Under the pieces are notes generated by a model. The model was not told where the DNA came from. It was given only the letters and a program-made list of their open reading frames with translations, and did not search any database. A stretch of DNA of 64,000 bases from Candidatus Poribacteria bacterium (GTDB taxonomy: Bacteria > Poribacteria > WGA-4E > WGA-3G), in assembly GCA_965205015.1 (NCBI GenBank), contig OZ242029.1, positions 2,816,001 to 2,880,000 of the forward strand, given 5' to 3'. Of the stretch, positions 9,938-28,434 are shown piece by piece (position 1 is the stretch's first letter; every line of letters begins with the position of its first letter). Position numbers and translations under genes: made by a program.

Positions 9938-12880
9938 TTAATTGAGAATCTCATCCCAATCCCACAAGAAAATTGTGCCATCCATGGCAGTGCTGACGAG
10001 CGTTTTACCATCTGGTGAAAACGCTAACGTTGCAACTTGTTGCGTATGTCCATCAAGAACCGAGATCTGGTCTCCTGTTGTAACTTTCCACAATTGGATT
10101 GCACCGTAGCTGTGTCCATTAACAAGTACCGCACCATCCGGCGAAAATATCAACGGTTTGGCGTAACCCGTGAATGTGTTTCTACCTCGTCTGTGCCCTG
10201 TGCTAATTGAAAAAAGTTTATTACCGGTATCCACGTCCCATAAATGGACGTGACGATGCGTCCCGACAGCAAGCAAGGTCCCGTCTGGAGAAAATGCCAA
10301 GGCAGCAATATGACCCAAATTCTCGCGCCCCGTTGATTCTTCAAAAGCAGCTAAGGTTCCGCTAGTCACAACATCCCACATCTGGATTTTCCCGCGTTGT
10401 GTGCCACTGACGAGCCTTGTACCGTCTGGCGAAAATGTCAATGCAGAAACCCTCGGCATATTGCGAACATTAGTTTTCGGATCAGCGAGGCGGATATTCT
10501 GTTCATCGCCGGTTTCCGTATTCCACAAACGAATTTCACCGGAACCAGAAAATGCCACCATTTTGCCATCAGGAGAAAAAGTCAGTTCATCGGTTCCCTT
10601 ACTATACTGTAGGGTTATGAGTTCACGTCCCGTTCTTACATCCGTCAGGCGAATCAGATGGTCTGAACGCCAAGTCATCAGCGGGAAGCCGTTTGCTTCA
10701 AAGACTACAGCACCTTCTGCCCCTACACTAACGAGTTTCGTGCCATCAGGTGAAAACGCCAAGGTTGGGAACCAATCCCGATGTCCTGTAGATTGGATGG
10801 CGGACTTTTGCGAGGTTTTCACATCCCAAAGGGTAACTATGCCATTAAACGCCACACTTGCAAGTGTGGAACTATCCTCAAAGAAAGTCACCGCCTTCAT
10901 CGACTGTGTGTGTCCGGAGATAGGGTTATCTATCGGAGCACCAGTCTCCGTCTGCCAGAAATGGACCGTGCCATCCGTACTGCTGCTGGCAAGCGTTTGA
11001 CCATCGGGTGAAAACGCTAATGCGGTGATACCGTTGCGGTGACCGGTGAGCGTCACAAGCGGTTCACCTGTGGTGGTGTCCCACAACTGCACTGTTTTAT
11101 CGGTACTCCCACTGGCAAGCCTCTCTCCATCTGGAGAAAACGCTAATACGTTTGTCCAACCTGTATGTCCTTGAAGTGTGACCCATTCGTTCTTGTTGGT
11201 GGTGTCCCACAATCGCACTGTTTTATCGGTACTCCCACTGGCGAGGCGGGTGCCATCGGGTGAAAACGCCAACGCTAATATATTCGGCATAGACGATGAT
11301 TTGCGATGTGAAGGCTTACCAAGGGGTTGAATAGACAAATCTACATGTCCTCTAAGGGTGGATAACTTTTTACGGGTCTTCACATTCCACAGTTCAATCT
11401 TCCCGTCCTCCTTCCCGATTGCAATTTTATCGTGATCCATCGCGTAGACAACATCAAAACTAACATCCCTTGTAAATAATCCCTGACTAAATAGCCAACC
11501 GAATAGCCCAGTTTTGAGATACTTCGTATGCTCTCTGCCGGTCTCAACGTTCAGTTCGCTAATTGCATTTCCTGAGTTACTCAAACTGATAAGCGTTTTT
11601 CCATCTGAAGAGAACCGTAATACCGATGCAGCAGCATATAAATCCTTGAGCAACACTTCGCGTCCCGTCGGTACTTCCCACACTCGGATTTCCGTCTTCC
11701 CGGAATAACCACCGCTACTTGCAAGGAAACGCCCATCAAATGAAAAAGCGAGGCATTGAGATTTGCCAGCAAATAGATTTCTCTCTTTGCCCGTTTCTAC
11801 ATCGTAGAGCCAGATCCCGATATTACTACCGACTGCGAGTTGTGCGCCATCGGGTGAAAACTGAATTACGTTAGCGCCGCCTTTTCCCAAACGCGCTTTC
11901 GCCTTTTCAGGTAGTTTCCATTGCGTATAATTTATGCCAGTTTCATCCGATTCCGCAGCGGCAAATAGCATCAGTTCCTCATCAGGCTGCTGTTCAGAGA
12001 TATGACTCTTATTCGATGCAGTGGAAGCATTTCCGAATTGCGTCCGCACATCCGGTTTAGATTCGATATCCAGCACAACGGGTGCTTCGATAAGTTCAAC
12101 AGTCATTTCCGAAGGGGCATCGAAGCTGTAAGGCTTCTGGAAACGCGCGAAATATTGATTGCTTACCCCCAACATCAACAACACCACTGCTAACGTAGAA
12201 GTCGCAATTGCCCACGGTGCGAATGGTTTACTATTAGGTGGCGTAACCGGTTTCAGACGCGAAATCTCGCGCATGATATTCTCTGTCAGATTCGGTGTGA
12301 TCTGGAAATTCTCCAAAGCCTCTCTTATCATGGGTTCCTCCCTCTTTAAACGCTCTTGTGCGCGGCGCAGACGACTCCTAATTGTATTTGCCGACACACC
12401 CAGAAACTTGCCAATTTCCGCACTGGACATTTCACCGAAGTAACGCAGCGTTAGAATCGTGCGATCACTCTCTGGAAGTTTAGCGAGCAACTTTTTCACA
12501 GCTGCGCGTTGTGCTTCTATCGCTGTCCGTTCGTTTTCGGCAATGATATGCCCTGAATACGTCGCGCGCTCTAACTGAGCGATGCCTGTATCTTCAAGCG
12601 ACTGCATCCACAAACGCTTTTTACGCAGCCATGCAGTACATTGACGACTCGCTATCACATAGAGCCAACTCGCAAAGGACTGCGGTTCCTTCAGTGTTGA
12701 GAGTCTTTGATACGCTTTCAGGAACGTATCCTGCGTAATTTCCTCGGCAATGTGGAAATCCCCGATCTTCCGCCATACGAGGGCGTGAACGGGTTTTTGG
12801 TATTTCCTCACGAGCTGCGTGAAAGCGGTATCATTGCCGTCAAGCGTGCGGCGAATGAGTTCAACGTCACTATTTTTCAT
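9938..12880 (-). CDS. ECF sigma factor - TM helix - WD40 beta-propeller fusion
   Basis: Sigma region 2 (AEEITQDTFLKAY..FASWLYVIA) and region 4 (EIGKFLGVSANTIRSRLRRA), TM 'WAIATSTLAVVLLMLGV', many GH..V..LAFSPDG..LASGS.D..V.LWD repeats. GGAGG RBS before ATG 12880. Confidence 0.92.
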   Translation of the reverse strand: MKNSDVELIRRTLDGNDTAFTQLVRKYQKPVHALVWRKIGDFHIAEEITQDTFLKAYQRLSTLKEPQSFASWLYVIASRQCTAWLRKKRLWMQSLEDTGIAQLERATYSGHIIAENERTAIEAQRAAVKKLLAKLPESDRTILTLRYFGEMSSAEIGKFLGVSANTIRSRLRRAQERLKREEPMIREALENFQITPNLTENIMREISRLKPVTPPNSKPFAPWAIATSTLAVVLLMLGVSNQYFARFQKPYSFDAPSEMTVELIEAPVVLDIESKPDVRTQFGNASTASNKSHISEQQPDEELMLFAAAESDETGINYTQWKLPEKAKARLGKGGANVIQFSPDGAQLAVGSNIGIWLYDVETGKERNLFAGKSQCLAFSFDGRFLASSGGYSGKTEIRVWEVPTGREVLLKDLYAAASVLRFSSDGKTLISLSNSGNAISELNVETGREHTKYLKTGLFGWLFSQGLFTRDVSFDVVYAMDHDKIAIGKEDGKIELWNVKTRKKLSTLRGHVDLSIQPLGKPSHRKSSSMPNILALAFSPDGTRLASGSTDKTVRLWDTTNKNEWVTLQGHTGWTNVLAFSPDGERLASGSTDKTVQLWDTTTGEPLVTLTGHRNGITALAFSPDGQTLASSSTDGTVHFWQTETGAPIDNPISGHTQSMKAVTFFEDSSTLASVAFNGIVTLWDVKTSQKSAIQSTGHRDWFPTLAFSPDGTKLVSVGAEGAVVFEANGFPLMTWRSDHLIRLTDVRTGRELITLQYSKGTDELTFSPDGKMVAFSGSGEIRLWNTETGDEQNIRLADPKTNVRNMPRVSALTFSPDGTRLVSGTQRGKIQMWDVVTSGTLAAFEESTGRENLGHIAALAFSPDGTLLAVGTHRHVHLWDVDTGNKLFSISTGHRRGRNTFTGYAKPLIFSPDGAVLVNGHSYGAIQLWKVTTGDQISVLDGHTQQVATLAFSPDGKTLVSTAMDGTIFLWDWDEILN

Positions 12881-12930
12881 GAATTCCCTCCGATTGTTCC
12901 ATTTTTCATGAATTCCCTCCGATCGTTCCA
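12873..12930. repeat. 29-bp tandem duplication spanning the RBS and start codon of the ECF-WD40 gene
   Basis: tttttcatgaattccctccgat(t/c)gttcca x2. Confidence 0.9.
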
Positions 12931-12933
12931 TAG

Positions 12934-12977
12934 TGACGCGACTTAGGGGTACAACTGGTGCATAATTCTGCAAAAAA
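12934..12977 (-). promoter_or_regulatory. ECF-type promoter copy 1 (upstream of ECF-WD40 gene)
   Basis: Minus strand TTTTTTGCAGAATTAT-GCACC-N17-GCGTCA. Confidence 0.7.
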
Positions 12978-13083
12978 CACATACGCGTTTGGGAAAGAAG
13001 GATTCGTTTGGTTTTATCAATAGTGTACAATTCTAAGTTTGTGTAAATCTTAGGGCAATTTGTCAAGTGAATCAGAAACGAGC

Positions 13084-14937
13084 TTATTGCATCCGCCCCA
13101 TCTGCGCCATCATTTGGATCATCTGTATAAGCTGCTTGAAGTCGCCGAGTTTAAGGAGGAGTTTCGCACCAATGCTACTTTCCTGTCTTTTGGCGGAAAA
13201 ACTGATACTATAGTCCTCTGGTAGATTCATAAAGATCCCCGAAAGTAGTTGCAGTGCTGCATTATTCGGATCCATCTCCCCCAACATCGGCAAAGAATTT
13301 TTAGTCGTGATTGCTGGAGAAATCGCAATGAAAATATTGTTGTCCGTCCCTAATTGGTCAACGAGCTTCTGATAACTCGGGAAGTCAGAAAACTTCTCCT
13401 CGTTTCCGACTTTCCTATCAAGTGCCATTTGAATTGCTTCTGGACCCGTGCCCGTTGCGAAAAGGAGTTGCCCTTCGGTAAACCCATAATACCAGTGTAA
13501 TTCAGTGGGCATCAAACCAGCGATTTCCTCAGGGAATTCCTCGGGAAGTCTCGCGGTGAAATTAGGAAAAATGTAACTTTTAATTTCAACGCGGTTGTGC
13601 ATCATTGATGGACCTGCATAAATACCGCCTTCCTGGAGTTGTTCCAGAAACACCTCATCCATATAGGTTTTGGCACGTTGCGCATCTTTCAACTCATAGA
13701 TGAACAGAGAATCGGGTAACAAGCTACCCCTAAAGTTGAAAGAGACGCTCCACCGATCCACCAGAGATTCATGAAAATCTTTGATCTGCTCAAAGAGCAA
13801 ATCCCGCCGTGCTTCTTGTTCTGGCGTTTCTTGTGGAAAGGCGGCTAACAGGAGTTCGCTGAGTTCAACCTGCAGCTGCGGGCACCCCTGAAAGGCACCG
13901 TTCACAGATGCACGATTTGGCAGCTCGTCGAGAAAAGCCAATTCACCGGATACCTCTTCCAACAGTTTCAAAAATTCGCTATCGCTCCTGAGTTTTAGAA
14001 ACGGCTTGATTTGGAGATCAGTTCCCTCCACTTCAAGTCTCACACTGATAGATTGAAGCTTCTCAATGGACTCTCTATCTTTTTCAGGTATGTCTTCAGG
14101 TATGTCTTCAAAGAAGGATGCAATCGTTTTGGATGTCTCATCACCAGCCTTGAGAGTTTCTACGATTGATTCCAATTCCTCCTCAAGGGGACGATCGAAA
14201 GTAGCAATAATTCCCTCAATATCAATGCACACGCCTCCCTGATCGTCACCTGCCAAAATGTCGGCAAGGAAGGTGCTGTAATTTGCGTTCTGTGTGATAG
14301 TCGCTCCGGTTCCGTTATAGATATCAATAACGTTCTCACAAACCCCATGGGGCGTTGAAAAAACGAGGATGTTCTTCAAAATAACAAAACTCTGGTTACC
14401 TTCGGTTGCGTTCCAATAGGTTACGCCTTTATGTTCCGCGGGAACACTGCCTTTCGCTTCAATCATCTGTTTCATTGCCTCGGGATCTATTAGATGCGCA
14501 AGGGCGGAGAGATGCAATGGCTGCAAACTGGTAATAAAGACAGTGAAATCTCGGTTCACATCCAACCCAATTGCTTCAAAATCGGCTAAACTTTCAAACG
14601 CATCTCCGAAAATACGCTTCAAAATCTGCGTAGATACATTGGGAACCTCGATTTGTGGGGAAAGCTCCGCCATCATCGTATTAATTCTGTTATCCAGCTC
14701 AAGCAGGCTGGGGCAGTAGCTAACCCCCAATGCCCCTTTCGGAATTAGGCGCAGAACACTACTGTCTGGAACAGCAACTGGAGCACCTTGAGGTTTTTGA
14801 GAAGGCGTATCTATGGGTGTTGGTTCGGATACCTTAGATGAATCTGGCACGGCTTCTACCACATTTGAAGTGGCGAATAGAAGGGTTATCAGAGATATCG
14901 ACACGATGAAGCATGAAAGTAAACATTTCTTTAACAT
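13084..14937 (-). CDS. Secreted hypothetical protein (DUF3352-like)
   Basis: Signal peptide MLKKCLLSCFIVSISLITLLFA and AAGGAG RBS. 'LRLIPKGA' start and alpha/beta pattern resemble DUF3352. Confidence 0.6.
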   Translation of the reverse strand: MLKKCLLSCFIVSISLITLLFATSNVVEAVPDSSKVSEPTPIDTPSQKPQGAPVAVPDSSVLRLIPKGALGVSYCPSLLELDNRINTMMAELSPQIEVPNVSTQILKRIFGDAFESLADFEAIGLDVNRDFTVFITSLQPLHLSALAHLIDPEAMKQMIEAKGSVPAEHKGVTYWNATEGNQSFVILKNILVFSTPHGVCENVIDIYNGTGATITQNANYSTFLADILAGDDQGGVCIDIEGIIATFDRPLEEELESIVETLKAGDETSKTIASFFEDIPEDIPEKDRESIEKLQSISVRLEVEGTDLQIKPFLKLRSDSEFLKLLEEVSGELAFLDELPNRASVNGAFQGCPQLQVELSELLLAAFPQETPEQEARRDLLFEQIKDFHESLVDRWSVSFNFRGSLLPDSLFIYELKDAQRAKTYMDEVFLEQLQEGGIYAGPSMMHNRVEIKSYIFPNFTARLPEEFPEEIAGLMPTELHWYYGFTEGQLLFATGTGPEAIQMALDRKVGNEEKFSDFPSYQKLVDQLGTDNNIFIAISPAITTKNSLPMLGEMDPNNAALQLLSGIFMNLPEDYSISFSAKRQESSIGAKLLLKLGDFKQLIQMIQMMAQMGRMQ

Positions 14938-15520: not shown

Positions 15521-16852
15521 TTATCTCAATGTAGCGTCTATAGAGATTCTCGCGAGGAAAGAATTGACTTTCCCTTCTCCACTGAACGAATTACCGGTGG
15601 CACCTAACTTAAAGCGCGTGCCTTCATCAAAACGGTGCGTGATCCTTCCGCCCTTACCGGGTACAATCCCTGATGCTGCGGTGAGTATAACCTGAGGCAT
15701 GCCGTCTGTTGAGAATTCGCTGTCGCTTGCAAACAGGATGAACGCACCGGCAGCCTCGGCACTCCCCATCCAGAGATCAATCGTGAGCATACCACCATCT
15801 TTAAACGCCGTCGCATCAATCTCAACAACGGTGTAATCTTGAGTGCCTGCTGTCGGTGTTCGGAAAATATTCAAGATATCCTGTGAAGGTTCTTCATCGT
15901 TGAGCACGACGCTTTTTGCCTGTGTGGAAAGAAACCTCGGTGTGTATTCCGATTGATCTGCCTTCGGTGCAAATCCATCACCCTTACGCGGGGTCATAGA
16001 TTTACCAACTTGTGTCCGCACATTCGGTTTTGATGCAAGATCCAGGACAATAGGAGTGTCAATAAGTTCCACCGTCATCTCCGATGGGGCGGCAAAATCG
16101 TAGGGCTGTTGGAAACGTGTTAAGTACTGACTGCTTGCTCCAAATGCCATTAAAACGAGGACGAGGGTTGAGGTAGCGAGTGCCCACGGCACGAACGGCT
16201 TACCACTGGGGGGTGTGGTGGGTTGGATGCGGGAAATCTCTTGCATGATTTTCTCGGTGAGATTCGCCCGAATCTGAAAGCCTTCCAGTGCTTCTCGGAT
16301 CATCGGTTCTGCCTTCTTTAAGCGGAGTCGCGCACGACGAAGCCGACTCTTAACAGTGCTCGCCGATACCCCCAAAAAACGGCTGATCTCTTCACACGTC
16401 ATCTCTCCAAAATAGTGGAGTGTGACGACGGTGCGTTCACTTTCCTGCAACCGGGCGAGCAATCTTTGGACGATGCCGCGCTGCGCCTCTACCGCAGCTT
16501 TTTCCTGCTCCTCGGCAATGTATTGGGAATACGTCACTCCTTCTATTAGTTCGATGTCCGTATCTTCCAACGATTGCGTCGGCATCCGTTTTTTTCTCAG
16601 CCACGCTTGGCATTGACGTGCGGCGATTCTATAAAGCCATCCTGCAAAGCGACTCGGATCCTTCAACGTTTCCAGTTTCTTGTAGACTCGCAGAAAAGTG
16701 TCCTGTGTAATCTCTTCCGCGACGTGGAAATCGCCAACTTTCCGCCATGCGAGCGCGTGGACTGGCTTTTGGTATTTTTTCACCAACTTCGCAAAGGCGT
16801 TTTCATCGCCTGTGAGACTGCGTTGAATTAGTTCTACATCGTCGTTCTTCAT
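15521..16852 (-). CDS. ECF sigma factor - TM helix - extracytoplasmic 'domain X' fusion
   Basis: N-terminal ~280 aa paralogous to the ECF-WD40 protein. C-terminal ~120 aa homologous to the C-termini of the three SelN-like proteins. Confidence 0.9.
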   Translation of the reverse strand: MKNDDVELIQRSLTGDENAFAKLVKKYQKPVHALAWRKVGDFHVAEEITQDTFLRVYKKLETLKDPSRFAGWLYRIAARQCQAWLRKKRMPTQSLEDTDIELIEGVTYSQYIAEEQEKAAVEAQRGIVQRLLARLQESERTVVTLHYFGEMTCEEISRFLGVSASTVKSRLRRARLRLKKAEPMIREALEGFQIRANLTEKIMQEISRIQPTTPPSGKPFVPWALATSTLVLVLMAFGASSQYLTRFQQPYDFAAPSEMTVELIDTPIVLDLASKPNVRTQVGKSMTPRKGDGFAPKADQSEYTPRFLSTQAKSVVLNDEEPSQDILNIFRTPTAGTQDYTVVEIDATAFKDGGMLTIDLWMGSAEAAGAFILFASDSEFSTDGMPQVILTAASGIVPGKGGRITHRFDEGTRFKLGATGNSFSGEGKVNSFLARISIDATLR

Positions 16853-16960
16853 CTGTCCCCTCCAAAGAACTAAATTTGGAGAACCTTCAAGAATGATAAC
16901 GAGGCTGACAGGTTGGACGAAAATCCGTGGACATCCATCCAACCTGCTTATATCTTTGAA

Positions 16961-18946
16961 TCACTGGGCATCATAAATGAACCAGTTACCTTCCACTTTT
17001 CGCATCTTAACAGATACCTCCGAGGGATCTGCCATTGGCACTCTCAACCTGAAGTGGAATTCATCACCCACATACTCGCTGCCTAAGATCTCCATCTGAC
17101 GCAATATTTGACGCATCCGAGTACGCACATCCTCTGGCGCATCCTCAAAATCAACTTCAAATGTATGTCGGGCATCCCCTATAAGCATCGGATGTATTGT
17201 CTCTGCATCAAGGTTCTTAAATGCTTCCACGAAAGCGTTCATCACATCTTCCGCGGATTGATTTAAGTGCGCTGATGACACTTCTTTCCCATCCAATGCC
17301 TGATTCGGTTCAACAGAGATTTTCGCCACGAAGGCATTGACCTGCCCTTTCTTACTATGCCAATCACCGGTCGCCCCTAATTTAAAGTGATGCCCCCGGT
17401 CGAAAGGATAGATGATTTTCTTGGATTTACCCGGTGAGACTCCCCATGCCGAAGCAACCGCGTTCCGAGGTGCACCTTCTGTTGGGGGTTCGCTTTCGCC
17501 ATCAAACAGGTGGAACGAACCTGCAGCCTCTGCATGTCCGACGGAGATATTGATCGTAAGCACACCTCCATTTTCAAACGCCGTGGTATCAATTTTAATG
17601 ATAGTGTAATCTTGATAACCCGGTTCTGGTGTCCGAAAGATATTAAGGATCTCCTGTGAGGTTCGAACATCATTGAGTACAACCTTCAAACGACTCAATG
17701 CGGTATCCGAGTTGAGGGGCTCTGGTTCTGAAGTATCTTCACCGAATCCGGGAAGTTTTCCGTCTAAAGCTTCCTTGAGAAACGTTAGGTAACGTTGCCC
17801 CATGTTTGCTCCGAGAAGATCATTGACGGGCTGCCTGCCCATCAATTCAAGATCTGTTGAAAGAATCAAGGAATCTGACGGCGAACGCTTCTTCCACCCT
17901 TTCATGATTGCCTGTGCCAAAGGGGACTTTTTGTCGAATGGCTTGAATCCATGCTGGTGTCTCAATGCCATGAAAACTTTCTTATTAGCGGTGCGCTCCA
18001 ATTCGACATTCGACACCCAGGTATTGATAAAATTGTCATTCAAGAACTCAATGACTCGGTTGTTGGAGAGGACAACTGCCCTCAGGGCTTTACCGCTCCC
18101 TCAGCACGATTCATCCATCAATGGTCCATCTATAGAGATAGCGTGAATCGGCTTCTGTTGTGCGTGTGCCATCTCCAATACCTCATCTGGCGGCACCCAA
18201 TTAATTTGCTGTGATTTGTAGAAATTCGTTATCAGGGCACGTTCAGCGGTTTCTTGGGTAATCGCTTCTGCGAATTCGACGTTCTTCAGTAAATCTGGCC
18301 TTCCGGCACGAAGTTCCATTTGCGAACAGAAACCTGCATCTGTAATAGAGCTTCCGGGTCCGTATTTACTCCAGTTAACATCAAAGTTTACTGTGCCTTC
18401 AGGGACATACATCTTAAAGAAAGCGACCTTTTTTTGAATTCGATCAATTACAAGATGACCGGTAAACAGCGATGGAGTAAACCACCCATCCTTTAGTTTA
18501 AACTCCGCGTGAATCCGAAACACGATGTCGGCAAATGTATCGTTGTAAGCGCGCAGGCATGCCCACAAACCATAGGAATCGCCCGAGTTGATATGCATCT
18601 TCAAATTCGGATTGGGATGAAGTTGCCGTAGCAATTCTAATGCCCCGGTATTTTCAATCTGCCAGAGTTCGCCGATCGAAACCGCTTTGTCTGGAAGAAA
18701 GGCGCGGAAAACCGAGGCAGGATGCTGCTTCTCTGGTTCAGCAACGCGTAGATTTGCCAATGCCTCCCAATCTACATGGAAATTGGACAAGGTACTCACG
18801 ATTGGGGCGATGAAGCCTTTGACGGACATTTCAGATGCACCATCAAGATTAAGTGTAATTTTTTTATTCTGTGTCAAGTCCTCATTAGCGTTTAATTGTC
18901 CGCTTATCACAATCAGAGTGAGAAATCCAATCATTAGGGTTTTCAT
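16961..18946 (-). CDS. Selenoprotein N-like protein 1 (661 aa; Sec at TGA 18103-18101; signal peptide; domain X plus NTF2-like tail)
   Basis: ORFs 18101-19060 and 16961-18043 are in frame across a single TGA: GPLMDESC-U-GSGKALRAVVLSNNRVIEFLNDNFINTW. FRIHAEF motif present. AAGGAG RBS before ATG 18946. Confidence 0.85.
18068..18083 (-). promoter_or_regulatory. Candidate bacterial SECIS hairpin (SelN-like 1)
   Basis: GAGGGC-AGUU-GUCCUC, starting 18 nt after the UGA. Confidence 0.6.
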
Positions 18947-19144
18947 TTTTACTTCTCCTTGTAATAGAATAACATTACTACGTAAACAACGTCTATCCCA
19001 AAAGTTGTTGCTCGCGTAGATTCTCATCTTTATGGTTTGGAGCGTTGAGGTCGAGCGCACACCTTAATCCTTAAAATTATCCAAACTTTAGTAATTTTAA
19101 TAACGGCAATTTTATCTTTCAGTCGGTTTGCCACGCGCATTCCT

Positions 19145-19954
19145 TTAGAGCCCTCTTAGGAGGGATACCCACCGTTCCCATACGGCTTTAGTGGCAGTTT
19201 TCTGTGCTTCGTTGGCATCTTCTGTCATACCGCGCATCAGGAAAGCGTGACCGACCCCTTCATAGATGACGGGTTCGTAGGTGATGTTTGCGGCATCCGC
19301 CGCGGCTTTAGTGGCATCAATTGTGGCATTGATACGATTGTCGTTCTCGGCGTAGAAGCCATACACCGGTGCTGATATTTTGGGGATATCTTCCGTTGAT
19401 GGGGCAGGACCGTAAAACACAAAACTAGCGGCTATTGTGGTGGAATGAACAGCGTAACTGAACGTTTGACCACCTCCCCAGCAGAATCCGGAGACTGCAA
19501 CCTTTTCATTGGTTTCAGGTAGATTTCGGACATATTTTTCGATGGCATCCAGGTCGGATGTGACTTGGGAGGGTGGGAGTTCGCTGATAGCCCATGGTAC
19601 GTCGTCCCTTGAGTCGAAACTTTCTGTGCCGCCACCGTCAGGTCCCATGCCGGAAAGCATATCTGGACAAATTGCGACAAACCCTTCGGCAGCGAGCGTG
19701 TCTGCGACGAGTCGTATCCAATTGGTGAGTCCGCGACCCTGGTGGATGACGATGATAGCCGTTGCGGGTTCTTTCACCGTTGGATAAACGATAAACGCAT
19801 TGACGATACGCGCATCGGAGGTCGTAACTTTCACCCTTTCGCTGTGTCGCGGGGATACGTCAAGTTGAGTTTTTATACTATCAGCCTCTGCATCGGCAAT
19901 GAACAATAAACCGGTGACAATGATACCTAACATAAGCGTGTGGGCTATCTGCAT
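19145..19954 (-). CDS. Dienelactone hydrolase family protein (secreted)
   Basis: GFCWGG nucleophile motif, YEGVGHAF and a signal peptide. Confidence 0.9.
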   Translation of the reverse strand: MQIAHTLMLGIIVTGLLFIADAEADSIKTQLDVSPRHSERVKVTTSDARIVNAFIVYPTVKEPATAIIVIHQGRGLTNWIRLVADTLAAEGFVAICPDMLSGMGPDGGGTESFDSRDDVPWAISELPPSQVTSDLDAIEKYVRNLPETNEKVAVSGFCWGGGQTFSYAVHSTTIAASFVFYGPAPSTEDIPKISAPVYGFYAENDNRINATIDATKAAADAANITYEPVIYEGVGHAFLMRGMTEDANEAQKTATKAVWERWVSLLRGL

Positions 19955-20208
19955 AGTTTTTTCCTTATTTTTCCTTTGTACTGTGAATAATGGACTCTAC
20001 TACCTTTTAGATATTCTTTAGGACTTACGCGATAATTTAATATCTCAGCATTAAGCCCATTCCCCGATTTATCAATAATCGTCTGATCTGTAACCTCATC
20101 AAACGTCAGGTAAAAAACGAGTCCCTCATCCAAACTCGCGTTGGCGGAAATCGTCCCCAGGAGAATAAGGGGTCCCCAAAAAGCTGCACCGATAAATCCT
20201 CGTATCAT
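19945..20208 (-). pseudogene. Truncated LamG-family gene (N-terminal ~57 aa only)
   Basis: Matches the N-terminus of 24264-25082 (LDEGLVFYLTFD..IIDKSGNGLNAEIL), then similarity ends. Confidence 0.75.
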
Positions 20209-20280
20209 GTTTTCTTTTCCTCCTATAGAGTCATTTGAGTTTTCTAAAGCTTGTCACACAAATCTCGTGTCGATATATAA

Positions 20281-20324
20281 TGACGCGGAGGATTGGAAAA
20301 ACGGTTGCTTAATTCTGCAAAAAA
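20281..20324 (-). promoter_or_regulatory. ECF-type promoter copy 3
   Basis: TTTTTTGCAGAATTAA-GCAAC-N17-GCGTCATTATA. Confidence 0.75.
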
Positions 20325-20401
20325 TAGAGAAAATATGATACGGGAAATGGATTTGGTTTGTTCATAGACTAAATCTGAATATGAAGCGCGTTGGATCCGC
20401 G

Positions 20402-22063
20402 TTAATTTTCGTCCTGCCCTTTCGACGCAGACTCCACGGATATTGTCGCGAGAAAAGCATTGGTACCTCCCTTCTTACTGAACCCATCACCGGTAGCTCC
20501 CAACCGAAAGGATTGACCTCGCTCAAAGATATGCGTGATGCTCTCTGTTCCACCGGATGGAATACTCCACGCTGAAGCGAGGGCATTCTGAGGTACCCCC
20601 TCTGTTGGCAGTTTCCTGTTGCCAGCAAACAAATCAAACGAACCGGCAGCTTCAGCGTACCCGACGGAAACATCAATCGTAAGCACACCCCCATTTTCAA
20701 ACGCTGTCGCATCAATTTCAACGACAGTATAATCCCGAAAGCCCGCCTCTGGTGTCCGAAAAATATTCAGTACCTCCTGTGAGGTCCGAACATCGTTGAG
20801 TACAACTTTCAAGTTACTCAATACAGTATCTGAGTTGAGGGATTCTGGTTCTGAAGTATCTTCACCCAATCCTGGCTGTTTTCCCGCTAAGGATTCTTGG
20901 AGAAACGTTAAGTAATGCCTTGTTGTGTTTCCTCCAACGAGATGAAGTTTATTGGCGGGTTGCCTACCCATCACTTCAAACTGTGGCGATATGATCAAAC
21001 AATCCACTGGAGAATGTTTTTTCCAGCCTTTCATGATTGCCTGTGCTAAGGCATGGGTTGTATCAAATGTTTTGGATTCTCGCTCGCGTCTCTTCGCAAT
21101 CGGGTCTCGTAAACTCGGTACCCGTCCCAATTCGCAATTCGGCACCCATGTGTTGACGAAATTTTCGTTCAAGTATTTTATGATCTGATCGTCGGAGAGG
21201 ACAACTGCCCTCAAGGCTTTGCCACTCCCTCAGCACGATTCATCAGCAAGCGGTCCCATTATTGAGAGGACGTGAACCGGCTTCTCTTGTGCTGGTGCCA
21301 TTTTCAACGCATCTTCCAAAGAAACCCAGTTAATTTCCTGCGATTTGTAGAAACGCAATATCAGTTTACGTTCAGCCGCTTCTTGAGTGATGGATTCTAT
21401 AAACTCGGTGTCTGATACAATTTCTTGGATCTCAGCATGAAGTTCTATTTTTGGACAAAAACCGACATCTATAGTGTTAGTGCTGTTTCGTCCAACATCA
21501 AAATTCAGTATGCCTTCAGGGACGTACATCTTGAAGGCAGTAACCTTTTCCTTAATTCGATCAATAACAAGATACCCAGCGAATTGAGACGGAGTAAATC
21601 GACCATCTCTTAGGATGAATTCTGCATGGATACGGAACACAATTTCAGCAAATCTATCATTGTACGCGCGCAAAGATGCCCACAAGCCGCGAGAATCCCC
21701 TGAATTTATGCTAATATCCAGATTTGGCTTCGGATGAAGTTGTCGCAATAATTCCAGCGCACTTCCTTCCTCGATCTGCCAGAGATCCCCAACAGAAACC
21801 GCTTCGGATGGCAGAAAAGCCCGAAAAACCGAGGTAGGATACCGCTTCTCGGGTTCAGCAACCCGTAGATTCGCCAATTCATCCCACTCCACATGAAAGT
21901 TATATTGCGTGTATTCAATCGGGGCAATGACGCCTTTCACTAACACTGCAGATGTACCATCAAGGTTAAGTGTGATTTTTTTCTTCTCTGTCAAGTCTTC
22001 ATTGGCGTTTAATTGTCCATTTATCATCACCAGAATGAGAAGCCCAATCGTTAAAGTTTTCAT
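20402..22063 (-). CDS. Selenoprotein N-like protein 2 (553 aa; Sec at TGA 21232-21230; signal peptide; domain X)
   Basis: ORFs 21230-22063 and 20402-21214 are in frame across the TGA: GPLADESC-U-GSGKALRAVVLSDDQIIKYLNENFVNTW. Confidence 0.85.
21197..21212 (-). promoter_or_regulatory. Candidate bacterial SECIS hairpin (SelN-like 2)
   Basis: GAGGGC-AGUU-GUCCUC at +18 from the UGA. Confidence 0.6.
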
Positions 22064-22207
22064 TTTACAAATTCCTTAAAATTAACTACGGAAAATACGA
22101 TGTCTAAGTATCCATCTTACAAGAATTCGTTGTTCGCGTAGTATTACTATCAATATACAATAACTCGGGTTATATAAAGTAAAGCATTCTCACTTGCCAG
22201 CTACTCG

Positions 22208-23029
22208 CTAAGGGGTAACCGTCCTCTTTTTGACATCCGCCCAAGTCGTTGCGACTTTATCACTTGGTGAAACAGCGAGGAAATCCCCTACCATTGCCTG
22301 TTTAATTTCCCCATCGCTGAGTGCACGTTGCCAGACAGCGGTTTCATCAATAGAGCCGTTAGCGAATGCGTACTGCAATCTATTTTTTGCGCATCCGATC
22401 CGGAGTTTCGCGTTATTACCCCCAAAGAAATTGAATGTCTTTTTTTCCGAACCTATGACTTTACCGTCTAAATAAATCTTCACGGTTTTTCCGTCGTAGC
22501 TGCCAGCAACGTGGTACCATTTTCGGACACCCATTTTGTGTGAAACTGCGAATTCATGCCGGTCGGTAATCCCGCGTTTATCTCGCGACCCTAAAAACAA
22601 TACAATCTCTGGTCCGTCACCGATATCGGAGCTACCTATACCGTAGGTTCCAGACCAACCGACACCCGAATGGCACCCTTTATCAAGCCAATGCAACATC
22701 CTTTTACCTTTCCATGTTTCTTGATAGTAGATCCATGTCATCATTGTTATTTCGTTTGTAATTTTCAGTTTCTCTTGAGAAGGGATACTGACGCAATCCT
22801 GACCATCATCTGTGATATGAATGGCATTCCCGTATTTGCCCTTCACAATTTGGGTATTCTCGTGGAGTTCTGCGTCAAGACCATTCTTGGATTTGTCAAC
22901 AATTGTCTGATCTTTAACGTTATCAAACGTCAGATAAAAAACCAATTCCTCATCAAGTCCTGCGTTGGTAGAAATTGTCATTAACAGCATGACAGCACCC
23001 GAAAAAGCTGCAATAAATAACCGCGTCAC
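22208..23029 (-). CDS. Secreted LamG/concanavalin-like domain protein with C-terminal TTW-motif tail
   Basis: WYHVAGSYDG..IYLDG, IDETAVWQRALS, tail AVSPSDKVATTWADVK. Confidence 0.88.
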   Translation of the reverse strand: MTRLFIAAFSGAVMLLMTISTNAGLDEELVFYLTFDNVKDQTIVDKSKNGLDAELHENTQIVKGKYGNAIHITDDGQDCVSIPSQEKLKITNEITMMTWIYYQETWKGKRMLHWLDKGCHSGVGWSGTYGIGSSDIGDGPEIVLFLGSRDKRGITDRHEFAVSHKMGVRKWYHVAGSYDGKTVKIYLDGKVIGSEKKTFNFFGGNNAKLRIGCAKNRLQYAFANGSIDETAVWQRALSDGEIKQAMVGDFLAVSPSDKVATTWADVKKRTVTP

Positions 23030-23100
23030 GTTTTCTTTCCTCCTGTAGCGTCTGTTAAGTTTTCCAAAATTTGTTCCATAGACATGGTTTTGATATATAA

Positions 23101-23145
23101 TGACGCGGGTAACAGGCAGAACGGTTGCTTAATTCTGCAAAAAAA
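23101..23145 (-). promoter_or_regulatory. ECF-type promoter copy 4
   Basis: TTTTTTGCAGAATTAA-GCAAC-N17-GCGTCATTATA. Confidence 0.75.
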
Positions 23146-23198
23146 GAACAAAATGTGATACACAGCGCAGCAAACGCGCATAACACAGCAGTTTCATA

Positions 23199-24221
23199 CT
23201 ATTTCTCTTTTACTTTTCCCCATATTGTGCTGAGCAGTTGGGGTTGCGGTGAGACAGGCAACACATATACAGGGTCGAACCAATCCCCTCCAAAATTCGC
23301 CTTAAAAACCCGTCCAATATGTGTCAACTGTGTCCGAGTGTCACTGGGGATATCAAGTTTGAAAATGTGTAGACGTCCCTTAATTTTCTGTGTATAAAGG
23401 ACCTCTTCCCCATCTGGCGACAGCACTGGATATTGTGCTCTGGGCCCGGCTTCATTGAGAAGTTCTCGGAGATCCGTCCCGTCGCGGTTTACAATATAGA
23501 TTGTTTCTTTATCCAGCCATACGGGTGGGAAACGATCCCCTGGCAAAAGGCGCGGGAACGGGTTCTGATTCCAAGAAAAAGCGAGTTTGCTCCCCGTAGT
23601 CGACCAAAACGGTTGATTTTGCCAAGCCGTTGCCGTCCTCGGTAGGAGGTGTTTTTGTCTTCGTGTGTGGAGGTCAATTAGGGCAATTCGGCAGGTATCT
23701 CCAATATAAGACACATACGCTATTTTCGTCCCATCGGGTGACCACGTCGGATATCTGCCCTCCACGACACGCGCCTCTTTTTGTTCACCCAAGGTTGCAA
23801 CGTGGATATGGAACCTGACACCGTCCCAATTCAGGTGTGTGTAAGCGATCTGTTTGCCATCGGGTGACCACGTCGGAGAATCCCTATAAGATTTTCTTTT
23901 TCTTGTGAACACGGGACGGACATTGGAGCCGCTGGGATCCATCAGATATAAGTCCCGGATGCCGCCCTCGCGATCGGAAACGAAAAGAATCTGTTCACCA
24001 GTCGGGGACCAGACAGGGTTTAGGTCATTTGCGCGATGTTGCGTTAAGTTTATCTGTTCACTCCCGTCCGGATTCATCATGTAGACCTCGTAATTGCCGT
24101 CTCGTGAAGAGGTGAACAGAATTTTGGCGGTTGTGGGTGCTGTTGCGAAAACGAAGTTAACATTTACGTCCAGTATCAACACGTTCAATATAGCAAAAAC
24201 GAACAACCGTATTGTTTTCAT
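23199..24221 (-). CDS. TolB-like PD40-repeat protein with C-terminal TTW-like tail
   Basis: Repeated P.WSPDG units, tail PVSPQPQLLSTIWGKVK. Confidence 0.85.
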   Translation of the reverse strand: MKTIRLFVFAILNVLILDVNVNFVFATAPTTAKILFTSSRDGNYEVYMMNPDGSEQINLTQHRANDLNPVWSPTGEQILFVSDREGGIRDLYLMDPSGSNVRPVFTRKRKSYRDSPTWSPDGKQIAYTHLNWDGVRFHIHVATLGEQKEARVVEGRYPTWSPDGTKIAYVSYIGDTCRIALIDLHTRRQKHLLPRTATAWQNQPFWSTTGSKLAFSWNQNPFPRLLPGDRFPPVWLDKETIYIVNRDGTDLRELLNEAGPRAQYPVLSPDGEEVLYTQKIKGRLHIFKLDIPSDTRTQLTHIGRVFKANFGGDWFDPVYVLPVSPQPQLLSTIWGKVKEK

Positions 24222-24263
24222 TTTATGTGCCTTTATGAGGGATTCTGATTTTGTAGGGAGCCG

Positions 24264-25082
24264 TTAGGGAGCGACCGCTCTTCTTTTCATATCCGCCCAA
24301 GTCGTCGCGGCTTTATCGCTCGGCGAAATAGCGAGCATGTTTCCTGTCATCGCTTGTTTGATTTCATCATCACTGAGGGCGCGTTGCCACACCGCAGCTT
24401 CATCAATAGAGCCGTTCGTGAATGTAAGATGGGGTACGTCTTTTGCACATCCGATCCGAACGTCTGCTTCGTTGTCCCCAAAGAAATCGAATTTTTTCTT
24501 TTCTTTTGCTATGACTTTACCATCTACATAGATTTTCATGGTTTCGCCATCGTAACTTCCGACAACATGATGCCATTTTTTTTCGTCCATTTCATGCGGA
24601 GTTCTGAACTCCTGTCGATCCCACTTCCCTTCTATGTGTGATCCCAAAAACAAAAAGATTTCTGGTCCGTTACCGGCATCAGTACCAGCAATACCATAAC
24701 AGTGCGCCCAACCAACCGGAACAACGAAATGACAGTCTTTTTCCAGCCAATGCGCCTTCTCGTTGTTCCATGTTTCTGCAGAATAAATCCATGCCATCAT
24801 TGTTATCTCACCGATAACTTTCAATTTCTCTTGGGCAGGGATATTGACGCAATCTCCGCTTTGACCTTTAAGGCGAATTGCATCTCCATATTTACCCTTG
24901 ACAATATCAACACGCTCAAGTATTTCTGCGTCAAGACCGTTGCCAGATTCATCAATAATCGTCTGATTTTTAACGTTATCAAACGTCAGATAAAAAACGA
25001 GGTCTTCATCCAAACCCGCGTTGGCAAAGGTCACCAACAACGTAACGACACTCAAAAAAGCAGCAATAAATGCCCGTAACAT
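24264..25082 (-). CDS. Secreted LamG domain protein with TTW tail (paralog of 22208-23029)
   Basis: WHHVVGSYDG, IDEAAVWQRALS, tail AISPSDKAATTWADMK. Confidence 0.88.
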   Translation of the reverse strand: MLRAFIAAFLSVVTLLVTFANAGLDEDLVFYLTFDNVKNQTIIDESGNGLDAEILERVDIVKGKYGDAIRLKGQSGDCVNIPAQEKLKVIGEITMMAWIYSAETWNNEKAHWLEKDCHFVVPVGWAHCYGIAGTDAGNGPEIFLFLGSHIEGKWDRQEFRTPHEMDEKKWHHVVGSYDGETMKIYVDGKVIAKEKKKFDFFGDNEADVRIGCAKDVPHLTFTNGSIDEAAVWQRALSDDEIKQAMTGNMLAISPSDKAATTWADMKRRAVAP

Positions 25083-25154
25083 GTTTTCTTTTCCTCCTAT
25101 AGCGTCATTTGAATCTTCCAAAATTTGTCACACAAATCTCGTGTCGATATATAA

Positions 25155-25198
25155 TGACGCGGAGGATCGGAAAAACGGTTGCCTAATTCTGCAAAAAA
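25155..25198 (-). promoter_or_regulatory. ECF-type promoter copy 5
   Basis: TTTTTTGCAGAATTAG-GCAAC-N17-GCGTCATTATA. Confidence 0.75.
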
Positions 25199-25339
25199 TT
25201 AGCAAATTTAGACATGGCTGTTGATAATTAGGGGTAAGGACGATCCATTGTCTTATGAATGAATTTCGATTTTTGAGTTTGCTTTACAGAAACGTAGATA
25301 GATAGGCGCGCGTTGACAAATAGGTTAAAATGATATGGG

Positions 25340-26875
25340 TTATTTTTCAAATGGGGGGACGACAGAGACACGCGCCAAAAAAGCATTGGAAGTGCTCTTT
25401 TGGTTGTTTGCCCTTGTAGCGACCAACTTAAAATGCTGTTTGCCCTCCCTGAAGTGGTGAAAGATATGTCCTGTATTGCCGGGCAAAACGTTCCATGTCC
25501 CAGTCAGTGCTTTATCTGTCGTTTTGTTTGTCAGAATTTTCGCATCGGCATCAAACAATTCAAACGTTCCTGCTGCCGCCCCTGCTCCGACCTGTATCTC
25601 AATGTGGAGCACGCCGCGTTCAAAAGGGGTGGTATCAATCTCCACGACCGTGTAATCTGGCGTATCGGTGTCGGATGTGTTGAAAACATGCAAAATCTCC
25701 ATCAACTCCGTCCCTAAGCTGATCGGGTTTCGATCTAATTTTGAGGCGTTCCCTACACGAGCGCGTTTTCCTTCAAACGCATCCACGGAATGCTGCAGCA
25801 CCGATAGGTATGCTTGCGCGTGATTCCTGTAAGGCAGTGCCATCTCCGGTTGATGCATAATGACTTCCGCGTCGGGGGTCAGTGCCAGAATATCCACAGA
25901 GTCGGTGTAATGGTGTTTCATCTTTTGAGCGACGAGACTCACCCCTTCGCCTTCCGCGCCACCTATCAGTTCTGGCAATTCCCGGAGGAGCACCCACGTA
26001 TTGACGAACTTTTCGTTGAGCGTTTTTATGACTTCAGGATTGGAGAGCGGACCCGCCCTCAAATTTTTGCCATTCGCTCAGCACGATTCATCATCTAAAC
26101 ACCCCCAGACAAGGATGGCATGGATCGGCCGATGGGTCGCTTTTGCCTGTGCGACTGCCTCATCAATCGGCAGCCAGTTGATCTCCGCGAACTTGTAGAA
26201 CTTCAGTTCCAATGCACGATGTGCTTCTTCCGTTGTGATAGTAGCGTCCCACGTGATCTCGTTTTGGTCGGTCTCATCTATAGCGAGGAGTTCCATACGC
26301 GGCACGAAAACCATATCCGCTCCCCCAGAGGCGTTGAGGTCAACGTTCGTGTTGCGCGCCGGCAAGGCTAATGAAAACGCGCGAATCGTTCCGCTTTCTA
26401 CATTCACCACTACTTTCCCTGCAAATTGTGATGGAATAAACCTGGCTTCGGACTCCCACTCATCGTTTTTTTCTTGCCACTCCTGATGAGCAGCGGAGTT
26501 CAACGCGAATTCTGCATGAATTCGGAAAGCAATTTCTGCGTAGTCTGAGGCACGTGCCCGTAAGCAGGCAAAGGCACCTTCCTCACCGTACCCTAAATCA
26601 GCCGTTGCTCCCGGATGAAACTGACGCAGGAAGGAAACAACACTGTTCGCATCAAGTTTATAGACATCCCCTACCGTCACAGCAGATGGTGGCAGGAACG
26701 CAGTGAAAGCATCAGTCCGGTATTCCTTAACAGGTTGGTTTGGTGACAGATCGAAAAGTTCAACGTGTTCTGGCGATGCCTTGTGCATACGAAAGGTAGA
26801 ATCCGCAATCGGTTCCCAATGTGCATGCACCTGTAGACGTGTTGAACTATTTAGGACATTACAAAGGTTTATCAC
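25340..26875 (-). CDS. Selenoprotein N-like protein 3 (511 aa; Sec at TGA 26080-26078; domain X)
   Basis: ORFs 26078-26875 and 25340-26062 are in frame across the TGA: HAILVWGCLDDESC-U-ANGKNLRAGPLSNPEVIKTLNEKFVNTWVLLREL. GGAGG RBS before the GTG start. Confidence 0.85.
26043..26060 (-). promoter_or_regulatory. Candidate bacterial SECIS hairpin (SelN-like 3)
   Basis: GAGGGCG-GGUC-CGCUCUC at +18 from the UGA. Confidence 0.6.
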
Positions 26876-27087: not shown

Positions 27088-28434
27088 ATGATTCAGACGG
27101 CTTACAAGGAAGCGTATCGTCCACAGTTCCACTTTACACCCAAGACCAATTGGACCAACGATCCGAACGGCTTAATCCATTACAAAGGTGAGTACCATCT
27201 CTTCTTCCAACACAACCCATTCGGTATCGACTGGGGCAACATGACGTGGGGACACGCCGTTAGCACAGACCTCGTCCATTGGAAACAACTCCCGCATGCC
27301 CTCCATCCAGATGAACTCGGCACAATCTTCTCGGGTTCTGGTGTCGTGGACTGGAAAAATACGGGGGGGTTTCAGACTGCGGACGAGGCGGTACTCGTCA
27401 ATTTTTATACGTCTGCAGGCAGCCACGCCCCGAAAGAGGTTCCGTTCACACAAAGCATCGCCTACAGCAACGATCGCGGACGGAGTTGGACAAAATATGA
27501 AGGGAATCCCGTGATTGAGCATATCGTGAGGGATAACCGCGACCCGAAAGTCATTTGGCACGAACCGACGCAAAAGTGGGTCATGGCACTTTACCTCGAC
27601 CAGAATGACTATGCCCTATTCGGTTCGACAAATCTCAAGGAGTGGACACGGTTATCCGACCTGCAGATTCCCGATACAGAATGCCCGGATATCTTTGAGC
27701 TTCCCGTTGACGGTGATCCGGATAATACCAAATGGGTTTTCTGGGGCGCAGCGGGAAAATATTACGTCGGTAGTTTCGATGGAACGACCTTTACACCCGA
27801 AGATGACGCACAGCGCGCCGACTACGGTGCCAATTTCTATGCGGCGCAAACGTGGAGCGATGTGCCAGAATTCGATGGCAGACGCATCCAAATTGCTTGG
27901 ATGAGTGGCAGTAAACCACCGGATATGCCTTTTAATCAACAGATGAGCTTCCCGTGTGAGTTGACCCTTCGGACGACTTCAGAGGGGATACGGCTACACC
28001 GAGAACCGGTTGAAGAGATCGAAAACATCCACACATATACGCACGCGTGGAGCGACCTTTCACTCAAACCGGGTGAAGACCCGCTTGCAGGATTGACAGG
28101 CGAACTGTTCGATATCCGCGCTGAAATAGTCTTGAACGATGCGACTGCCGTTGGTTTCAAAATTCGCGGGCAGGATGTCCGTTACGACGTTGGATCTCAG
28201 CAGCTCACGTTCTTAGAAAGAAGCGGACCCCTCGCGCCACGAAATGGGAAGATCCGCTTGCAAATTTTAGTCGATCGTATCTCTATTGAAGCATTCGGAA
28301 ACGATGGTAATCTCTCAATGACGTCCTATTTCCTGCCAGATCTGGACAACGCTGACATCGGAATCTATGCAGAGGGAAGCACAGCGACGTTCGTATCCCT
28401 GAAAGTACACGAGTTAAGGTCTTCGTGGGTGTAA
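27088..28434 (+). CDS. GH32 beta-fructofuranosidase/levanase (cytoplasmic)
   Basis: Catalytic motifs WTNDPNG, RDP and ECP, plus FSGS. Confidence 0.93.
   Translation: MIQTAYKEAYRPQFHFTPKTNWTNDPNGLIHYKGEYHLFFQHNPFGIDWGNMTWGHAVSTDLVHWKQLPHALHPDELGTIFSGSGVVDWKNTGGFQTADEAVLVNFYTSAGSHAPKEVPFTQSIAYSNDRGRSWTKYEGNPVIEHIVRDNRDPKVIWHEPTQKWVMALYLDQNDYALFGSTNLKEWTRLSDLQIPDTECPDIFELPVDGDPDNTKWVFWGAAGKYYVGSFDGTTFTPEDDAQRADYGANFYAAQTWSDVPEFDGRRIQIAWMSGSKPPDMPFNQQMSFPCELTLRTTSEGIRLHREPVEEIENIHTYTHAWSDLSLKPGEDPLAGLTGELFDIRAEIVLNDATAVGFKIRGQDVRYDVGSQQLTFLERSGPLAPRNGKIRLQILVDRISIEAFGNDGNLSMTSYFLPDLDNADIGIYAEGSTATFVSLKVHELRSSWV

Follow-up and report, generated by a model that had tools for sequence, protein, structure and literature searches.

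The best-studied bacterial selenocysteine insertion sequence (SECIS) elements are those of the formate dehydrogenase genes in Escherichia coli. According to a 2026 review (PMC13188914), the bacterial consensus combines an apical loop of 3–9 nt, an upper stem of 4–16 bp, at least one G among loop positions 1 and 2 that is mostly followed by G or U, a distance of 16–37 nt from the UGA to the loop, and a minimum free energy (MFE) of −7.5 kcal/mol or lower. A coding-region hairpin near a selenocysteine (Sec) UGA is also known from animal SELENON, where it is called the SRE; there, as described in PMC12839072, an S-C-U-G motif within a thioredoxin-like domain holds the Sec, and Sec462 is followed by Arg466, a basic residue at position U+4. 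Here, we analyzed a 64,000-nt stretch of Candidatus Poribacteria contig OZ242029.1 (assembly GCA_965205015.1, positions 2,816,001 to 2,880,000; hereafter, the window), in which three neighboring, related genes of a bacterium of the sponge-symbiont type each contain an in-frame UGA with a short hairpin just downstream. We find that this hairpin is very probably an ordinary bacterial SECIS of the SelB type, one that would bring Sec to the redox site of a protein with a thioredoxin fold.

Among the shared features of the three copies (Table 1) is the position of the hairpin. In each, the first paired G is found 18 nt past the A of the UGA, with 17 bases in between, or at +20 when the U is counted as 0. 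A stem start at +20 is later than in E. coli. Direct reading of the coordinates bore out the original prediction that the hairpin starts exactly +18 from the UGA in all three genes, and likewise the sequences and locations that it had given for copies 1, 2, and 3, while the translations agree with its remark that the encoded peptides differ (RAVVLS versus RAGPLS). Its further claim, that the pairing is kept between copies, holds insofar as all three have a hairpin, but copy 3 pairs different columns. In fact, the 3′ arm of copy 3 is shifted by 2 nt along a CUCUCC run, and the step between copies 1 and 2 and copy 3 is thus a register shift rather than columnwise covariation. As for the stability of whole 64-nt folds relative to shuffles, copies 1 and 2 are ordinary (z of −0.33 and −0.35) and copy 3 is mildly unusual (z of −2.18).

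To place these hairpins among their homologs, a scan of one genome per species returned 263 relatives, and the best 80 (77 loci) were taken. These best 80 are Candidatus Poribacteria metagenome-assembled genomes (MAGs) or unassigned MAGs, the closest with 84–85% identity to gene 2. The main set for the hairpin analysis consisted of 144 unique UGA+66 nt sequences, nearly all of which come from MAGs of Candidatus Poribacteria. All distinct variants among the 144 fold into a 6–8-bp hairpin, and the hairpin is also formed by each of 20 additional copies from more divergent genomes. When compared with the bacterial consensus, 143 of the 144 agree in loop, stem, G, and spacing together, and the single miss is a parsing artefact, its 18-mer being the same as the main type. 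Here, the apical loop has 4 nt (AGGU, AGUU, GGUC, or CGUG) or 6 nt (AGKUGA), the upper stem has 6–8 contiguous pairs, and the UGA-to-loop spacing is 23 or 24 nt. Within the loop, a G at +27 (140/144) is followed by G or U at +28 and by a U at +29 that is invariant (144/144). The energy of the hairpin alone lies within the published limit for 139 of the 144, and that of the UGA+60 nt segment does so for all 144.

Conservation of the UGA was equally examined in these genomes. Across the 77 related loci, TGA is found in 165 of 165 motif matches and Cys in none, with a search pattern that allowed only a stop or Cys at this position. Moreover, when the 175 genomes of the Poribacteria phylum were searched with a degenerate DNA motif, its TGA form gave 703 matches (150 listed and 553 unlisted) spread over 130 of them, often in tandem and with as many as 17 in a single genome. 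The Cys-Cys form of the motif was found in none of the 175 genomes, and a reversed control pattern gave no matches. This SelN-like family is, then, greatly expanded in the phylum.

More conspicuously, the codons that make up the stem and loop are nearly fixed. Among the 144 sequences, Leu is YUG and Arg is AGR without exception (AGG in 129), xCA is found in 140, the third base of loop codon +9 is always U, and Leu CUC and Ser UCY are each found in 141. Elsewhere in the same genes, the codon-family shares are 9% for AGG, 18% for AGA (27% for AGR), 20% for CUC, and 34% for GCA. Rare codons are therefore fixed at the hairpin. A scan of synonymous entropy over 156 copies and ±110 codons gave observed-to-expected ratios of 0.55–0.85 outside a single trough, which spans codons −1 to +13 and is deepest (0.10) at the loop codon. 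The constraint starts upstream of the hairpin, at the Cys codon −1 (UGC in 143/144), and spans GGG AGY GGY AAA. Synonymous recodings of the same peptides fold with a mean MFE of −5.05 (standard deviation, sd, 2.5) versus the observed −9.04.

Compensatory changes in the stem were also observed. At pair 23:32, G-C is replaced by A-U when AGG becomes AGA together with GUC becoming GCU (10 cells), and at pair 24:31, G-U is replaced by G-C or A-U. A change of codon +10 to Glu, other substitutions, or a change of the loop are taken up by the +2 register shift. In the 7-bp register, for which 23 sequences were picked by hand, pair 20:37 changes from G-C to C-G by coupled Leu-to-Phe and Ser-to-Cys replacements, and pair 26:31 from G-C to A-U by a synonymous Ala change and a Pro-to-Leu replacement. 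In this hand-picked set, 95.7% of cells pair, 3 of the 7 pairs vary on both sides, and the covariation score is 0.263 versus 0.149 (sd 0.02) in shuffles, with 0 of 500 reaching it; when the partners are slid out of register, 33–67% of cells pair. The original prediction had named a lack of covariation as grounds for giving it up. Some compensatory changes do exist, so there is no outright lack, but the signal is weak in the main set.

Decoding of such UGA codons would depend on a Sec apparatus. In all five related Poribacteria genomes that were inspected and hold the family, selA, selB, selD, and tRNA-Sec are present, with selB over its cut-off and a tRNA-Sec of 78 bits with anticodon TCA located 60 nt from selB. 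The organism of the window presumably has the same machinery. Together with the fit to the consensus and the sole synonymous trough, these genes in relatives support the original proposal that the family is adapted to bacterial SelB decoding. The selD gene of the related genomes has one in-frame TGA of its own, and a hairpin 14–17 nt past the UGA is found in selD, in two AhpC/TSA-type (peroxiredoxin-like) genes, and in a SelW-like Rdx gene. For this comparison, four of the AhpC/TSA loci were inspected, and 3 of 10 rows were set aside as unrelated TGA sites let in by a loose filter. Like the present family, these other selenoprotein genes have a G(G/U)-containing apical loop about 20–29 nt past the UGA, with GGG(G/U), GGU, or GUU at +19 to +27. 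They differ in having unrelated stems and loop sizes of 3–10 nt, and no lineage-specific sequence is common to them. The suggestion that the hairpin may define a SECIS model peculiar to the lineage, with which further selenoproteins could be sought, is therefore not supported, as the stems of these four other families are unrelated to it. As a separate observation, the related genomes look rich in selenoproteins, with one TGA in 6 of 24 (G001) and 7 of 27 (G004) AhpC/TSA matches, besides the SelW-like Rdx and selD genes (L088–L100).

With regard to the genes themselves, alignment of the paralogs shows conserved protein sequence on either side of each TGA, with the frames intact. The gene 3 protein is more divergent (39% identity to that of gene 2). 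Alignment with gene 2 indicates that gene 1 likely starts at the ATG at 18946; its stop is the TGA at 16963–16961, past which lies a terminator-like inverted repeat. One further gene boundary in the window likewise uses TGA as a real stop, and there is thus no general reassignment of this codon. The C-terminus of gene 1 (window ~16961–17290) has about 110 extra residues with no counterpart in genes 2 and 3.

The three window proteins gave no significant match in Pfam, the best being Thioredox_DsbH (E 0.036) and Thioredoxin_7 (E 0.044) in one relative, and NCBIfam has no family for P0001–P0003 or P0019. Sequence searches of the PDB gave no match with a single protein and none below E 0.09 with a profile. 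In an AlphaFold (AF2) model built from 46 aligned sequences (pLDDT 87.3), the gene 2 protein is predicted to consist of a signal-like N-terminal helix, a beta-rich domain, a thioredoxin fold, and a C-terminal beta-sandwich. The modeled thioredoxin fold comprises residues 242–395, with C277-U278 placed directly ahead of the helix 279–286. In a wide structural search, this region matched DsbH (PDB ID: 2ju5; Z 12.6, root-mean-square deviation 3.6, 125 residues aligned), thioredoxin (PDB ID: 2lst; Z 11.2), and the UAS domains of UBXD7 (Z 9.8) and FAF1 (Z 8.8). With Foldseek, the PDB gave matches to the C-terminal beta-sandwich alone, and it took the wide structural search to bring out the thioredoxin fold. 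The beta-sandwich itself (residues 415–545, window ~20430–20820) resembles the PliG lysozyme inhibitor, GOLD domains, and the extracellular domain of SID1 (Z 10.5–11.6).

A likely course of events at the ribosome can be drawn from these features. With the UGA at the ribosome, the hairpin would sit just outside the mRNA entry, where the G(G/U)U-containing apical loop and the upper stem would bind the C-terminal domain of a SelB carrying Sec-tRNA(Sec). Delivery by SelB would then cause the UGA to be read as selenocysteine instead of as a stop. The Sec so inserted would have a Cys as its neighbor (C-U) where the first helix of the thioredoxin fold begins, which is the usual redox position. Both the binding of SelB and the actual insertion of Sec at the UGA are what we infer from the comparisons above.

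Homologs without Sec, and those in other lineages, offer a further view of the element. One orthologous subgroup (loci L105, L106, and L113–L130) is found in 20 of the 175 genomes, 12 with TGA and 8 without, and the latter have a Gly codon, GGA or GGC, at the Sec site; 19 of the 20 loci were parsed (L127 was left out). By similarity, the Gly-for-Sec copies fall into three or four groups, which we take to be separate losses. In their flanks, synonymous divergence is 0.13–0.22 to the nearest Sec orthologue and 0.03–0.10 within groups, and the losses thus look recent. In the GGC group, the loop has changed from AGUU to AACU, a change avoided in Sec copies, and codon −1 has changed from UGC to UGU in 5 of the 8 Gly copies versus 1 of the 144 Sec copies. 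L101, from a metagenome contig of 55% G+C, is the single Cys form proven by DNA, and it has a 6-bp GGUC hairpin with C-G replacing A-U at 21:36. Three Sec forms on contigs of 59–69% G+C, with 29–38% protein identity to a Cys-type query, have a 7–8-bp hairpin with a GGUC loop, a start at +19 or +20, and Arg encoded by AGA or AGG. As the hairpin recurs on contigs of such composition, the element tracks the gene family and not the Poribacteria lineage. Further relatives in the database have Trp, Leu, or Thr at the Sec site. Database proteins printed with C-C were also considered as Cys forms, but some of these are untrustworthy, given that all eight full-length orthologs of one of them (P0250) have TGA; some of the C-C entries may be Sec shown as Cys.

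Several results weigh against reading the hairpin as a SelB-type SECIS. Of the 2414 TGA trinucleotides in the window, 39 (1.6%) are followed by a structure that fits the consensus with at least 6 bp, and the present sites are 3 of these 39. The motif alone is thus weak evidence, and what carries weight beyond chance is its conservation across homologs. In Rfam, the whole window had no match at gathering scores, and an E-value scan of 17900–26300 gave two chance snoRNA matches alone (E 2.6 and 7.3). Formal independent covariation is thin: the main alignment is near-invariant, with 95.6% of cells pairing versus 94.2% in shuffles, and a test of independent pairs on a tree built without the element (7 pairs, ~2 concordant) was not significant (p ~0.5). 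The Sec machinery is seen in relatives and only presumed for the window's own organism. The peptide itself favors a hairpin, since 24.5% of its recodings reach the weakest observed energy (−6.6 kcal/mol) and 6.8% reach the observed mean. Furthermore, synonymous constraint from codon −1 to the hairpin is not accounted for by a SECIS. Lastly, the original prediction had regarded equal conservation in Cys-encoding homologs as a refutation, and the stem is retained in all eight parsed Gly-for-Sec orthologs as well as in the Cys form L101. Such retention without a UGA gives no evidence of a dependence on that codon, although the Gly copies, their losses being recent, say little on the point.

These same points lend themselves to other explanations. 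A selected RNA structure whose main role is something other than SelB recruitment (ribosome pausing, mRNA protection, or SelB-free recoding like that of the SRE) would agree with the stems kept in the Gly copies and L101 and with constraint reaching upstream to codon −1, where SelB binding is unexpected. It would also agree with a possible mini-hairpin that takes in the UGA itself, for which RNAalifold pairs UGCUG with YGGCA (18091–18106, 21220–21235, and 26068–26083 in the window) and in which no pair varies on both sides. We consider such a role improbable, however, as the non-Sec copies are recent (flank synonymous divergence of 0.03–0.22) and have already changed in the loop and at codon −1, and as the position, loop content, and size of the hairpin agree with the SelB-type model and with the other selenoprotein genes of the same genomes. 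If instead the hairpin had no RNA function, it would be a by-product of the conserved peptide L-R-A-x-x-L-S and codon habits, or of gene conversion among the tandem paralogs. Here, the near-invariance of the peptide, the quarter of synonymous recodings that fold to −6.6 kcal/mol or lower, the many tandem copies, and the few independent covariation events would all be in keeping. Yet AGG and CUC are used at 90% and 98% at this site versus 9% and 20% in the same genes, and the trough is limited to 14 codons; the freely varying synonymous sites on its flanks mean that conversion of a whole segment does not explain it. Moreover, the structure is kept, with coupled amino-acid changes, across genomes of very different G+C, and a functionless hairpin is accordingly very improbable. 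The idea that the UGA is not Sec at all, and that these are pseudogenes, genes split into two proteins, or cases of readthrough with a standard amino acid, draws on database gene calls that stop at the UGA (most of the 150 matches listed either end at residue 277 of the query or start at residue 284) and on the single-base derivatives with Gly, Trp, and Leu at the site. It is barely credible in view of the TGA in all 165 copies and 703 pattern matches with conserved, intact frames on either side, the location of the UGA next to a Cys where a thioredoxin fold has its redox site, the full Sec machinery in relatives, and the use of TGA as a true stop in the window. A SelB-type SECIS thus remains the reading that we favor.

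Table 1. Location of the three genes, their UGA codons, and associated RNA features in the window.
Feature	Position	Strand	Basis or remark
Gene 1, SelN-like selenoprotein (predicted)	16961..19060	-	Open reading frame (ORF) read with TGA as Sec
Gene 2, SelN-like selenoprotein (predicted), 553 aa	20402..22063	-	ORF read with TGA as Sec
Gene 3, more divergent paralog, start codon uncertain	25340..26875	-	ORF and alignment
In-frame UGA of gene 1 (predicted Sec codon), motif D-E-S-C-U-G-S-G-K	18101..18103	-	
In-frame UGA of gene 2, motif D-E-S-C-U-G-S-G-K	21230..21232	-	
In-frame UGA of gene 3, motif D-E-S-C-U-A-N-G-K	26078..26080	-	
Putative SECIS hairpin of gene 1, GAGGGC-AGUU-GUCCUC, 6 bp	18068..18083	-	Hairpin-only MFE −8.9 kcal/mol
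Putative SECIS hairpin of gene 2, GAGGGC-AGUU-GUCCUC (16-mer identical to gene 1)	21197..21212	-	MFE −8.9
Putative SECIS hairpin of gene 3, GAGGGCG-GGUC-CGCUCUC, 7 bp, 3′ arm in +2 register, loop GGUC	26043..26060	-	MFE −10.8
Suppressed synonymous stretch of gene 1, codon −1 to +13	18062..18106	-	Codon-entropy scan
Possible 5-bp mini-hairpin of gene 1, contains UG of UGA	18106-18102 with 18095-18091	-	RNAalifold

Around the three genes, the window encodes an ECF sigma factor, located directly downstream of gene 1 (15521–16942, minus strand), whose C-terminal extension is long. A single protein of ~700 residues from elsewhere in the phylum (P0250; loci L131–L138) combines an ECF sigma domain with a SelN-like domain, and TGA is found in 8 of 8 full-length orthologs of this fusion. 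The association with ECF sigma factors hints at a redox-sensing regulatory role. Other neighbors (within 9938–13150, 22208–25121, and 27088–28434) are a 1070-residue WD40-repeat protein, two Laminin_G_3 proteins, a PD40 beta-propeller, and a GH32 glycosidase, and there is a dienelactone hydrolase at 19145–19954. These neighbors are in keeping with the eukaryote-like repeat proteins of sponge symbionts.

When set beside the canonical bacterial SECIS of the bSECISearch model, the family hairpin is alike in being an in-ORF stem-loop directly 3′ of the Sec UGA, with dimensions inside the published ranges. In canonical terms, it has a loop of 4–6 nt with G and then G or U, an upper stem of 6–8 bp, and an MFE of about −9 kcal/mol. 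The GGUC loop of copy 3 and the distant homologs is that of the E. coli fdhF element as well. Two differences stand out, these being that no long lower helix was found in the family hairpin and that its CUCUCY 3′ arm permits two registers, both of which have been used in evolution. As such, the hairpin adds a well-supported example to a known class, the bacterial SECIS, in which the co-evolution of element and peptide is on view through fixed rare codons, coupled amino-acid changes, and a slippery 3′ arm with two registers. The more interesting part is the family that it marks, which consists of thioredoxin-fold C-U proteins without a Pfam or NCBIfam model. Standard gene callers split these genes in two, and their correct annotation would enlarge the selenoproteomes of sponge symbionts.

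In the literature consulted, no bacterial SelN-like selenoprotein is described, and selenoproteins of Poribacteria are found in one listing alone (PMC13582414); the BSepDB and deep-Sep family tables may include the family. Protein searches for similarity to SELENON returned only unnamed or hypothetical bacterial proteins, with three such matches for the most SELENON-like metagenome homolog. The likeness to SELENON is therefore drawn from motif, U+4 residue, and fold, and not from a SELENON alignment, and it serves as a lead to family membership for the window proteins. The resemblance may extend beyond the motif. Compared with SELENON as described in PMC12839072, genes 1 and 2 read S-C-U-G-S-G-K with a basic residue at U+4, and gene 3 reads S-C-U-A; moreover, the fold around Sec in the gene 2 model is likewise thioredoxin-like (UAS-like). 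The SRE, for its part, is similarly a coding-region hairpin directly downstream of the Sec UGA in that description, but it differs in working with a 3′-UTR SECIS and eukaryotic factors rather than with SelB. It is rather unlikely that the family hairpin and the animal SRE are one inherited element, such that the gene, already coding for a selenoprotein, was exchanged between the two domains and its former SECIS lived on in animals as the SRE, where it helps in recoding the UGA. Persistence of the stem in bacterial copies that lack a UGA would be in line with a hairpin that contributes independently of SelB. In any case, correctly annotated members of this family would open a way, from the bacterial side, to the chemistry of selenoprotein N and perhaps to its origin.

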